From NCBI RefSeq assembly GCF_002854065.1, contig NZ_CP024147.1: a stretch of DNA of 64,000 bases; one strand, 5' to 3'. This document shows positions 43,401 through 49,400 of this stretch, one piece after another (the first letter of the stretch is position 1; each line of letters opens with the position of its first letter). A program made the position numbers. Origin of the DNA: Escherichia coli (GTDB lineage Bacteria > Pseudomonadota > Gammaproteobacteria > Enterobacterales > Enterobacteriaceae).

Positions 43401-46400
43401 CCCTAATACACCGGCGGTTTTCTTCGCCGCCAGTTTGCCCATCACGGAGATATCGTCCAGCAGTGTGGCGATATCATCGAGCAACGTCAGTAAACTACTC
43501 CCGGCCAAAAGCATTCCCTCTCATTTTTATTGTTGAAGGGTGTAAGTATGAAGCAAAAACGGCAGCTCTGATATTTGCTTCACAGGTCAACATTTTTTTA
43601 ACAATCAAGTGCAATTATATCTCTCGCCAGCAGAATGATTTTCACGTTTACTATGAACCACCTTTTTATTTCCACCGTGAGGGATTATGCGTTTCCGCCA
43701 GTTATTACCGCTTTTTGGCGCGCTGTTTGCGTTGTATATCATTTGGGGCTCAACCTATTTTGTCATTCGGATTGGCGTGGAAAGCTGGCCTCCATTAATG
43801 ATGGCGGGCGTTCGATTCCTGGCAGCCGGTATTTTATTGCTGGCATTTTTGCTACTGCGCGGACACAAGCTCCCCCCGCTACGTCCGCTGCTCAATGCCG
43901 CGCTGATTGGCCTGTTATTGCTGGCTGTCGGTAATGGCATGGTGACGGTTGCCGAACATCAAAATGTTCCTTCCGGCATCGCCGCCGTAGTGGTTGCAAC
44001 CGTGCCCCTCTTTACCCTGTGCTTCAGCCGCCTGTTTGGCATTAAAACGCGCAAACTGGAATGGGTGGGTATTGCCATTGGGCTTGCCGGAATCATCATG
44101 CTCAATAGCGGTGGAAATTTAAGCGGCAATCCGTGGGGCGCGATTCTGATTTTAATCGGCTCGATTAGCTGGGCGTTTGGCTCAGTTTATGGCTCGCGCA
44201 TTACCTTACCTGTAGGGATGATGGCGGGTGCGATTGAGATGCTGGCGGCAGGCGTGGTGTTAATGATCGCGTCGATGATTGCGGGTGAAAAACTGACGGC
44301 GCTCCCTTCCCTTTCAGGCTTCCTTGCGGTCGGCTATCTGGCGCTGTTTGGTTCGATTATCGCCATTAACGCTTATATGTATTTAATCCGCAACGTCAGT
44401 CCGGCTCTCGCCACCAGTTACGCCTACGTTAACCCGGTGGTCGCGGTCTTGCTGGGTACGGGACTGGGCGGAGAAACGCTGTCGAAGATTGAATGGCTGG
44501 CGCTCGGCGTAATTGTCTTCGCGGTGGTACTGGTCACGTTGGGAAAATATCTCTTCCCGGCAAAACCCGTAGTTGCGCCAGTTATTCAGGACGCATCAAG
44601 CGAGTAAATGAATCCCCTGCGTGTCGATCTGCGCGCTGGCACCTTCGCCGCAGATCCACTCTTCCAGACGCTCGCTAAGCGCTTCATCCGTCAGCTTCTC
44701 GCGCCCACGTAACGCGCACTCCCAGACAATCAATACGCGCCAGCCGAGTTCCTGCAAGCGACTGATATCGCGGCGATCGCGCTCAACATTTTTACCTATC
44801 TTCTCCAGCCAGAACTCGGTTCGAGTCGCAGGCACTTTAAACAGATAGCAGTGATGATGGTGCCAGAAGCAGCCGTGGGTAAATATCACGCAGCGATATT
44901 CATCAACGACAAAATCCGGGCGTCCGGGCAGACTGGCGTCCTGAACGCGAAACGCCAGGCCCTGCCCGGTTAACAGACTGGCGAGGCGCTTCTCAATCGC
45001 CGTATCACGCGTGGCAATCGCGCGCATATTTTTGCTGCGAGTGGCCTTATCGTGAACGTCGGCCATGTTGTGCCTCTTGCTGACGCAACGCCACCGCCTG
45101 TTTGATTTTTGGCTCAAGCAGTTTTGCCACCGCGGCAAAGACCGGCACGACCACCGAGTTACCGAACTGGCGATAGGCCTGAGTGTCCGAAACCGGAATG
45201 CGGAATTTCGCTTCTCCCGGCGCTTCAAAACCCATTAAGCGCGCGCATTCCCGAGGCGTTAACCGACGTGGACGATGTTGCTGATTCAGCGGATCGTCAA
45301 AGTCTTTTTCACCCGTGGCCATATCCCATCCGCGATCGATTAAAATTTCCGCGCCATCTTTGTAATAACGCGCAGACAGCGTACGGGTGACGCTTTGCGG
45401 ATTGTTCGGATAAACCATTCCATAACCGAAGCCGTTACCGCGCGCCTGATGTTTTTTCGCATATCGATAGAGGTACTTCCACAGTACCGGCGTCAGGATA
45501 TATTTCGCCTCGACCATCGGGTCCAGCAGCTGCGCCAGCGTCACTCGCTGCGCAGGGAAACATCCGCTGATATCACGCAGAGTAAAATCGGCTTTCAGAT
45601 TAAGATCGCGACGAAAACCCACCAGCACGATGCGTTCACGGTGCTGCGGCAGAAAATGTTTACCATCGATGATTTTCGGATCGTCCGGCCCGTTATCTTC
45701 TGCATCAGCCACGTCATAGCCCAGTTCGTCCAGCGTCTTCATGATGATGCGGAACGTTTTACCCTGGTCGTGGCTTTTCAGGTTTTTGACGTTTTCGAGC
45801 ACAAACATCGCCGGACGACGCGCGTCGATAATGCGCACCACATCAAAGAACAGCGTGCCCTGAGTATCGCAGGCAAAACCGTGCGCCCGCCCGAGCGAGT
45901 TCTTTTTCGATACGCCAGCCAGCGAAAATGGCTGACAAGGGAAACCGGCCAGTAAAACATCGTGTTCAGGAATGTGTTGACGAATATGTTCCGCCGCCGC
46001 CTCATCACTCACGCCTTCTTTATGGCTGAGGGTGATGTCGCGGATATCTTCATTAAAATGATGCGTCGCCGGGTCGCAATAATGGTTGGCTTTATAAGTG
46101 CGTACCGCATGTTTGTTCCATTCGCTGGTAAACACGCATTGTCCGCCAATCGATTCAAAACCGCGACGGATACCGCCAATTCCGGCAAATAGATCGATAA
46201 AGCGAAACGCATAATGCGGATGATGTGCCGGTGGTTTGGGTAACAACGTTTGCAGATGGGCGAACTCTTTCTCACTTAAACGGTGCCATGCCGAGTCATT
46301 CGTCAGCGCACGTTTTAAAATTGCCGCGCTCCAGTGATTCTCACCCACAACATTAAGCTGCGCCACCAGCGTTTTAACATCATAAATTTGCAGCAGTTTC

Positions 46401-49400
46401 TCCAGCATTGCCTGTGCGGCATTCCCGGTGCTGTATGAATCGGTTACTGATATATTTTCCTGCATAGATTTAACCGGCCATCTGAGATGGTCGACAGGTT
46501 AACATAATTACAGCCATTTAGGGCCACGCGCTCAGCCCGCGGGTGAAAACGCATCTATCACCTTGTGATCGACACCTTCATTCTCCCCCGCCAGTTCGGC
46601 ACTGAGCTTCGCCATAAACTCGACTAAAAAATGCGCGTTGTGCTGCGCCAGCTGCTTGCCTCTTACGGTTTGCATGGTTTGCGGTAGCTTCAGCAACTTA
46701 GTCTGGAAATGATCCAGCGCGTAACGTTTATCATCAAGCGGGCGATGCTGTGCGAGCGGATCTTCGGCATCAAACAGCGCCACGCCCAATGCCCCTGAAA
46801 CGGCAAACACACGTGCCAGGCCAATCGCCCCCAGGGCTTCCAGCCGATCCGCATCCTGGACAATTTTAGCTTCCGTGGTTAAGGGGGCGATTTGCGCGCT
46901 GAAACTGTGAGCGGCAATGGCATGACAAACGGCCTCAATTTTCTCCGCCGGAAATTGCACGAACTCTTCACGGAGCAGGCGACGCGTCTCTTCTGCCGCC
47001 AGGATTGAAGAACGCTGCCGTTGCGGATGATTTTTCGCCAGGCTCACAATATCGTGGAAATAACAGGCTGTTAAAATCACCAGCATATCGACATCGTCAT
47101 CTGCCGCCAGCTTCTGTGCCGTAGCCCAGACGCGGCGAAAATGACACACGTCATGAGCCGCGTCCTGGTGCTGATGATGGTTTTTCAACCAGTTTTCGAA
47201 CTGTGCCTGCCAGTGTTGTAAGTCCATACGCGCTCCGTTGCCAAAGAGTCGCCACCTTAGCAGTTTTTATTCATAGCGTCTGCTACGTGCGGGACGAGGT
47301 CGGGTGTACCAGGCAATGCTGCCTAACAATGCCCCGACCAGAGCCATAAATAAAAATCCGACCAGTGCCCCTAACCACTTTTCCGCGGTAGAGCCTAAAT
47401 CGCTTTCAAATCCCGACACGGGGGCATCGGGGATCCGGCTAATCACCCAGATGTAACGCGCCATTGCCCAGACGAAATAGCCACACCATGTATAGAAAGC
47501 CCACAAAGCCAGTTTGCCGCCAGGGCTGCGAGAGAGTCTCTCTTCCATCTTTGTCGAACCGTATTCCATTTTGAGATAACCCGGAAAATTCAGACTAAGC
47601 ACTATTATGTGATAAAAGTCACATTTTTCCACATTGAATGAGCCAGTCAAGACTCAATCATTTTTTGAACAAATAGATAAATTTTGCGCAACGGCAGTGA
47701 ATACAGGAAAAATCGTTTTGAGCGATTTTATTTATCTTTGATATCGGCTTTATTAATTCATTCAATCAATATATTAGCACTGATTACAATTATACCTTTT
47801 TATTATTCTGTGTCATGATGCCTCCGTTATTAGCCTTTTATCGTCTTGTTTATATTTTTTGGGCCGGCATGATGCCGGCTTTTTTTTATGCCTTCATTAA
47901 TGTGCGCGTGATCACACCAGCCGTTTAGCGCATCAATCATTGATACCCCCTATCTTTCCGCTCAACTCATAACATATTGATATGCATTTATAATTTTCAT
48001 GAATATTTATATTTAGAATTCATAATTATGAATTATATTAAATAGATTAGAAACATTTTGAAATCTTTTAAATATATTTGTTACATGTAGTCCTTAAAAT
48101 AAAATGAACTTCATAGAATAGTATCCAAATGTGCTTTTTTTTTGGATAACGGCACTTATTGATATATTCATGAAGATTATAATCACAAGGGAATACATAA
48201 TGAAAAGAAAAGTTCTGGCAATGCTGGTCCCGGCGTTATTAGTTGCTGGCGCAGCAAATGCGGCTGAAATTTATAATAAAGATGGCAATAAAGTTGATTT
48301 CTACGGCAAGATGGTTGGCGAACGCATCTGGTCAAATACTGATGATAATAACAGCGAAAACGAAGATACCTCCTATGCTCGTTTCGGTGTTAAAGGTGAA
48401 ACCCAAATCACCAGCGAACTGACTGGTTTTGGTCAGTTTGAATACAACCTCGACGCCAGCAAGCCCGAAGGTGAAAACCAAGAAAAAACCCGTTTAACCT
48501 TCGCCGGTTTGAAATATAACGAGTTAGGATCATTTGACTATGGCCGTAACTACGGTGTTGCTTATGATGCCGCAGCTTATACCGATATGTTAGTTGAATG
48601 GGGTGGCGATTCCTGGGCTTCCGCTGACAACTTCATGAATGGTCGTACCAACGGTGTTGCAACCTACCGTAACTATGATTTCTTTGGCCTGGTTGATGGT
48701 CTTGATTTTGCGATTCAGTACCAAGGCAAAAACAGCAACCGTAGCACTAAGAAACAAAATGGTGACGGCTATGCGTTGTCTGTAGACTATAACATCAATG
48801 GTTTTGGTATCGTTGGTGCATATAGCAAATCTGATCGTACTAATGAACAAGCTAGTGACGGCTACGGTGATAACGCTGAAGTGTGGTCATTAGCAGCCAA
48901 GTATGATGCAAATAATATCTATGCAGCAATGATGTACGGTGAAACCCGCAACATGACCGTTTTGGCTAATGATCATTTTGCAAATAAAACCCAAAACTTT
49001 GAAGCTGTTGTACAGTATCAGTTCGACTTCGGTTTACGTCCGTCTTTAGGCTACGTATATTCCAAAGGCAAAGATCTTTATGCTCGTGATGGACATAAAG
49101 GTGTTGATGCTGACCGCGTAAATTATATCGAAGTTGGTACCTGGTACTACTTCAATAAGAACATGAACGTCTACACAGCATACAAATTCAACATGCTGGA
49201 TAAAGATGACGCCGCCATTACTGGCGCAGCAGCTGATGACCAGTTTGCAGTTGGTATCGTCTACCAGTTCTAATCAGCCAACGCGCCGCGGCGTGTTACT
49301 GTAAAACTGAACACTAGCCTGAGTTCGTCCCTCATCGAACTCAGGCTTTTTTATTGGCATTTCATCTCCATCTGCGGCACACGCAATTGCCGAAGCATAT

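Follow-up and report, generated by a model that had tools for sequence, protein, structure and literature searches.

The dcm and vsr genes lie one behind the other in a 64,000-nucleotide (nt) stretch of Escherichia coli DNA (contig NZ_CP024147.1 of RefSeq assembly GCF_002854065.1; hereafter, the window), and the end of the first is read in another frame as the beginning of the second. This locus raises the question of whether the overlap ties the synthesis of the repair endonuclease Vsr to the translation of the methyltransferase gene dcm, or whether it is a by-product of close gene packing. The features on which the answer depends are given below in window coordinates.

45047..46465, minus strand: dcm, DNA-cytosine (C5) methyltransferase; 472 amino acids (aa), ATG start, TAA stop at 45049-45047; called from the open reading frame (ORF) and family matches
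44596..45066, minus strand: vsr, very-short-patch-repair T:G mismatch endonuclease; 156 aa, ATG at 45066-45064, TGA at 44598-44596
45047..45066, minus strand: region shared by dcm and vsr; 20 nt including the stop codon, read as H-G-R-R-S-R-stop in dcm and as M-A-D-V-H-D-K in vsr
45073..45078, minus strand: Shine-Dalgarno (SD)-like AAGAGG, within dcm, 6 nt upstream of the vsr ATG

The dcm translation matched Pfam PF00145 (DNA_methylase) with 258.6 bits (cut-off 22) over residues 87-448, Pfam PF18284 (DNA_meth_N), and NCBIfam NF007772 (Dcm subfamily, PRK10458) with 948.4 bits (cut-off 710) over residues 1-469. It carries GFPCQPFS and FVLENVKNL, which contain the catalytic motifs of the C5 methyltransferase family, namely motif IV (PCQ), with the nucleophilic Cys, and motif VI (ENV). 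Based on its 99.2% amino acid identity to Dcm of E. coli K-12, the enzyme probably methylates the inner cytosine of CCWGG. The vsr product matched Pfam PF03852 with 134.4 bits (cut-off 27) over residues 2-74 and NCBIfam TIGR00632 with 182.7 bits (cut-off 97.85) over residues 1-118, aligned from the first residue. Residues 2-156 were identical to chain A of PDB 1cw0, an E. coli Vsr-DNA complex, at 154 of 155 positions, including the catalytic and zinc-binding residues, and the full protein was identical to the crystallised E. coli enzyme at 155 of 156, the sole change being T to S at residue 131. The family models, the match to PDB 1cw0 and the RefSeq annotation agree on the gene identities that had been assigned in a preliminary description of the locus.

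Translation of both frames across the junction placed vsr in the +1 frame relative to dcm, with its ATG 20 nt before the end of the dcm TAA. The 20-nt overlap that the preliminary description had located at 45047..45066 was thereby borne out, as was its statement that vsr starts within the 3' end of dcm in a different frame, the vsr ATG lying upstream of the dcm TAA; the outer ends that it had given, 44596 for the end of vsr and 46465 for the start of dcm, were also exact. The same 20-nt +1 overlap is found in dcm-vsr of K-12 (b1961-b1960), between the same neighbours (yedI, yedA, vsr, dcm, yedJ and drpB), where vsr and dcm are annotated in MG1655 at 2030448..2030918 and 2030899..2032317, respectively. 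K-12 and the window share every base of the junction and of most of vsr; K-12 differs by four amino acid changes in Dcm and by T131S in Vsr (99.4% identical), with no structural difference. The pair in the window is thus almost certainly the chromosomal dcm-vsr operon of E. coli, an identification that no observation speaks against, and the pair itself, with its overlap, is an already known and ordinary arrangement. It had been put forward as established knowledge that confirms the gene calls rather than as a novelty, and the K-12 geometry agrees with that view. In the annotation of the window, the two coding sequences should be left overlapping by 20 nt, with vsr at its full length.

The conservation of the junction within the species was then surveyed in 5,426 complete E. 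coli genomes. The 2.3-kb dcm-vsr region was found in 5,367 of them, two of the matches being plasmid-borne, and had no match in 59. Two RefSeq E. coli chromosomes matched it at 100% identity, 182 genomes at 99% or more, and most E. coli genomes at 95-99%. A 100-nt probe centred on the junction had a full-length match in 5,319 genomes, leaving 107 without an intact junction. The B lineage of E. coli (BL21), which is naturally dcm-negative, may account for part of these absences. In strain 100416, whose RefSeq genome is 100% identical to this region, vsr and dcm are annotated with the same starts and stops and the 20-nt overlap, and the annotated 20-nt overlap is still present in the most divergent E. 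coli junction sampled (96% identity).

Beyond E. coli, the vsr start and the dcm stop were located in 80 species-representative Enterobacteriaceae loci that encode close relatives of Vsr (77-98% identity). The arrangements were distributed as follows.

Overlap of 20 nt between dcm and vsr: 48/80 loci
Overlap of 17 nt: 4/80 loci
Overlap of 14 nt: 2/80 loci
Overlap of 35 nt: 2/80 loci
Gap of 12 or 35 nt separating dcm and vsr: 2/80 loci
Extra gene inserted between dcm and vsr (Buttiauxella): 4/80 loci
No full-length dcm within 3 kb upstream of vsr: 18/80 loci

The two genes therefore overlap in 56 of the 62 loci that have a full-length dcm within 3 kb upstream of vsr. Recurring as it does in K-12, in strain 100416, in the most divergent E. 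coli junction and in these 56 loci, the dcm/vsr overlap is not a chance overlap.

What fixes its length is a separate matter. In the overlapping species loci, vsr was always in the +1 frame, the overlap length was always 2 mod 3, and the dcm stop was always TAA. This stop sits within Vsr codons 5-7 in all overlaps except the 35-nt case, in which it lies further in. A column profile over the species loci showed that the Vsr N-terminus, M-A/T-D-V-H-D/N-K, is nearly invariant and that Vsr codons Asp6-Lys7 (GAT AAR or AAT AAR) provide the dcm TAA; the regularity of frame and stop is due to this origin of the TAA from near-invariant codons. The exceptions follow the same codons. Asp6 is encoded by GAC in Siccibacter, and the stop is consequently lost and dcm extends to a 35-nt overlap; when His5-Asn6 is encoded by CAT AAC, the dcm stop comes one codon earlier and the overlap is 17 nt. 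It appears, then, that the overlap stays at 20 nt chiefly because two conserved codons of Vsr, Asp6-Lys7, supply the dcm stop. A constraint on the 5' codons of vsr agrees with published work in which Vsr required its first 14 residues both to reach full endonuclease activity and to be stimulated by MutL (PMC2715241).

These observations bear on the explanation that the overlap reflects gene packing and not selected coupling, with dcm simply using the first in-frame TAA, the one within Asp6-Lys7, and Vsr being translated independently from its own SD sequence. GAT AAR was equally conserved in vsr genes without an upstream dcm, and the overlap length therefore looks like a consequence of the constraint on Vsr and not like a selected number. 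The overlaps of 14, 17 and 35 nt and the gaps of 12 and 35 nt in related genera also fit packing. On the other hand, two decayed dcm genes (loci L003 and L032, described below) keep an open frame into the 20-nt overlap, which speaks against packing.

The overlap would be of another size, or absent, if Vsr started elsewhere. The vsr frame in the window is open back to a TTG at 45228, which would give a 210-aa ORF and a 182-nt overlap, and it contains an in-frame ATG at codon 14 (Met14), from which there would be no overlap. Either start is very improbable. Alignments to the curated Vsr models begin at residue 1 or 2 of the 156-aa product, the crystallised full-length Vsr (PDB 1cw0 chain A) begins at Ala2, and protein similarity across the 80 species begins exactly at the vsr ATG or GTG. 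In addition, in the loci without dcm the sequence upstream of vsr is non-coding or another gene ends there, and loss of the N-terminal 14 residues impairs Vsr (PMC2715241). The +1 geometry, with the vsr frame open through the end of dcm, is also all that a programmed frameshift within the overlap, yielding a single Dcm-Vsr fusion protein, would require. Nothing beyond this geometry speaks for such a fusion, and we regard it as barely credible: a conserved ATG or GTG with an SD-like core marks an independent vsr start, vsr is a stand-alone gene in many relatives, and the purified and crystallised Vsr is a protein of 155-156 aa in its own right. The alternative starts and the frameshift fusion were both considered and were rejected on this evidence.

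With the start at 45066 retained, the signals from which it would be served were analysed. The predicted duplex of AAGAGG with the anti-SD sequence had an energy of -5.8 kcal/mol, among the best 9% of positions along dcm. In the 48 species loci with the 20-nt overlap, a GAG core was conserved at positions -10 to -8 from the ATG (G in 48/48, A in 46/48 and G in 40/48) and was followed by G, giving a conserved GAG(G) at -10 to -7. The core is a Glu codon in dcm, the third base of which could vary freely; dcm in the window uses GAA for Glu 16 times versus GAG 8 times. AAGAGG thus probably acts in vsr initiation. An SD-like element conserved at vsr is also what independent translation of a packed gene would call for; however, the SD sequences of overlapped vsr genes were weaker than those of free-standing ones. 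The mean energy was -5.5 kcal/mol for overlapped vsr versus -7.3 kcal/mol for vsr with no dcm nearby, and the difference between the overlapped and all 24 non-overlapped loci gave p = 0.004 in a Mann-Whitney test, not corrected for phylogeny.

A mechanism can be proposed from this arrangement. The genes are head-to-tail on the minus strand, and translation of Vsr, as a polypeptide of its own, would begin at the vsr ATG on the dcm mRNA. This start would lie directly in the path of ribosomes that translate dcm and terminate on it, so that Vsr synthesis would depend on dcm expression (translational coupling); finishing dcm 20 nt past the vsr ATG, these ribosomes would supply or unmask a moderately weak start site. 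Dcm would methylate the inner cytosine of CCWGG, deamination of the resulting 5-methylcytosine would leave a T:G mismatch, and Vsr would nick 5' of the T and so start very-short-patch repair. The reported substrate of Vsr, T:G in CTWGG/CCWGG, is the deamination product at Dcm sites (PMC2715241). The pair is a textbook example of physical linkage between a DNA-modification gene and the gene for the repair of its mutagenic side-effect.

A single transcript is a premise of this proposal. A promoter and terminator consensus scan of 44300..47800, with counts compared with those of shuffled sequences, detected neither a σ70 promoter-like site within dcm nor a terminator-like one between dcm and vsr on the minus strand. 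The counts in the scan were at or near the shuffle expectation (promoter-like, 3 versus 3.6; terminator-like, 8 versus 4.6 +/- 2.4), and the absence of such sites weakly favours a single dcm-vsr transcript, as far as consensus matching can suggest it. vsr is described as lying downstream of dcm and being co-transcribed with it in the same operon (PMC12907096).

An RNA structure masking the vsr SD sequence and ATG was also considered. The fold of 141 nt as a single sequence scored z = -1.6, and 9 of 200 shuffled sequences were as stable; the RNAalifold consensus over 26 species was -0.76 kcal/mol with no compensatory pairs. Both a masking structure in the window and a conserved masking hairpin were therefore rejected. 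The lack of a conserved structure sequestering the vsr start is in keeping with packing. Within the coupling proposal, because no conserved inhibitory structure was detectable, ribosome delivery or termination-reinitiation is favoured, and coupling would probably work in one of these ways rather than by the melting of an inhibitory hairpin.

Vsr is reportedly made as a separate protein of about 18 kDa whose efficient synthesis needs dcm translation. The dcm-6 mutation, a nonsense mutation at codon 45, is reported also to abolish vsr activity, in a passage of PMC4444293 citing Dar & Bhagwat 1993; this is not expected if Vsr is translated independently of dcm. The dependence of Vsr synthesis on dcm translation is supported indirectly, by the dcm-6 citation and by the weaker SD sequences of overlapped vsr genes. 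Packing without coupling is in our judgement unlikely.

Several points nevertheless bear on how the two genes would be coupled. Of the 80 species loci, 24 have a vsr that is free-standing or set apart from dcm; coupling is thus not obligatory in evolution. According to a passage of PMC2715241 citing Macintyre 1999, very-short-patch repair takes place mainly in stationary phase and Vsr is low in growing cells. Since Vsr is thus reported to vary with growth phase, its level does not simply follow that of Dcm. Moreover, the case for translational dependence draws on a secondary citation of Dar & Bhagwat 1993. Two statements of the preliminary description accordingly stand in part. The pair had been called co-translated, which holds in that one mRNA and translational dependence are involved, but the products are two separate polypeptides in different frames and not one. 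The arrangement had also been called a known one that couples very-short-patch repair to Dcm methylation; the literature agrees with this, but the coupling is not strict, given the growth-phase regulation of Vsr.

The loci in which the two genes do not overlap were then compared. In 13 of the 18 loci without dcm, the order was yedJ-vsr-yedA, and yedJ ended approximately 30-40 nt before an intact vsr with a strong SD sequence of its own (L027, L035, L038, L040, L046, L056, L057, L059, L061, L066, L068, L071 and L082; vsr at approximately position 3001 in each). These 13 include Kosakonia, Phytobacter, some Enterobacter and others. Unrelated genes lay upstream of vsr in Klebsiella oxytoca and Pseudescherichia vulneris. 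The K. oxytoca locus (L045:2331-2981) lacks both dcm and yedJ in the 3 kb upstream of vsr; a 216-aa ORF ends 20 nt before the vsr ATG, and two further ORFs lie beyond it. Neither dcm nor yedJ was present within 3 kb upstream of vsr in K. spallanzanii (L074). Both K. oxytoca and K. spallanzanii retain gagattaaccATG directly before the vsr ATG. Two other members of the K. oxytoca complex, K. grimontii and K. michiganensis, have a dcm that overlaps vsr.

In two loci, dcm has decayed beside an intact vsr. Klebsiella indica (L032:2822-3020), one of the 18 loci without a full-length dcm, has dcm fragments only, and a remnant ORF of 25 codons still ends 20 nt inside vsr. Escherichia sp. MOD1-EC7003 (L003:2430-3020), a case additional to those 18, has an in-frame internal deletion in dcm that leaves a 196-aa remnant; the PCQ and ENV motifs are gone with the greater part of the methyltransferase domain, and both vsr and the overlap are intact. 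In Buttiauxella izardii (L052:2185-2703; also L054, L058 and L063), dcm and vsr are parted by an opposite-strand ORF of 172 aa whose N-terminus is hydrophobic and resembles a signal peptide; the two genes are approximately 0.9-1.0 kb apart, and vsr starts from its own ATG.

The comparison shows that vsr, judging from its start region, can work from its own SD sequence and without dcm in several related genera. The loci were gathered via Vsr, so that loss of vsr would be invisible, and the dcm-less loci show only that vsr can persist without an adjacent dcm, not that it always does. A refinement of the known arrangement emerges from the comparison: the conserved N-terminal codons of Vsr appear to dictate the overlap length, and related genera have repeatedly lost the linkage but kept vsr. 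We put forward only tentatively the combined reading that the exact 20-nt overlap is not itself selected, being frozen by Asp6-Lys7 of Vsr, and that dcm has repeatedly been lost, truncated or separated while an intact vsr, often with a stronger SD sequence, stays. If this is true, Vsr would have a selectable role without an adjacent Dcm, for example in repair for a methylase encoded elsewhere, or together with MutL and MutS.

Pairs of a cytosine methylase and a Vsr-like enzyme are also known in other settings. In restriction-modification and phage modules (for example, of Neisseria and the Burkholderia phages KL3 and AH2), a Vsr-family endonuclease is encoded beside a cytosine methylase and would mend the deamination damage arising from that methylase, as in the window (PMC12907096; PMC3483164). 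However, a restriction endonuclease or further genes form part of those modules, which also differ in specificity and gene order, whereas Dcm of the window is a solitary methylase directly overlapped by vsr. The ScmA/VsrA pair of Caulobacter likewise joins a solitary C5 methylase functionally with a Vsr-like nuclease (PMC12907096), but scmA and vsrA are far apart on the chromosome, in contrast to the overlapping dcm and vsr in one operon.

The neighbours of the pair in the window are yedA, convergent and downstream of vsr, and yedJ, upstream of dcm. The 3' ends of vsr and yedA also overlap.

44596..44607: convergent 3'-end overlap of vsr (minus strand) and yedA (plus strand, 43687..44607); 12 nt

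K-12 has the same geometry here (yedA 2029539..2030459, vsr 2030448..2030918). This overlap marks the boundary of the unit and does not belong to the dcm-vsr coupling. Immediately downstream of vsr, the consensus scan of 44300..47800 detected no terminator-like site on the minus strand, and the vsr and yedA transcripts may therefore run into each other. Also on the minus strand, at 47267..47650, lies drpB (yedR). Its longest ORF is 127 aa, from a TTG; the RefSeq proteins have 93 aa in strain 100416 and 100 aa in K-12, and the start codon of drpB is therefore called inconsistently between genomes.

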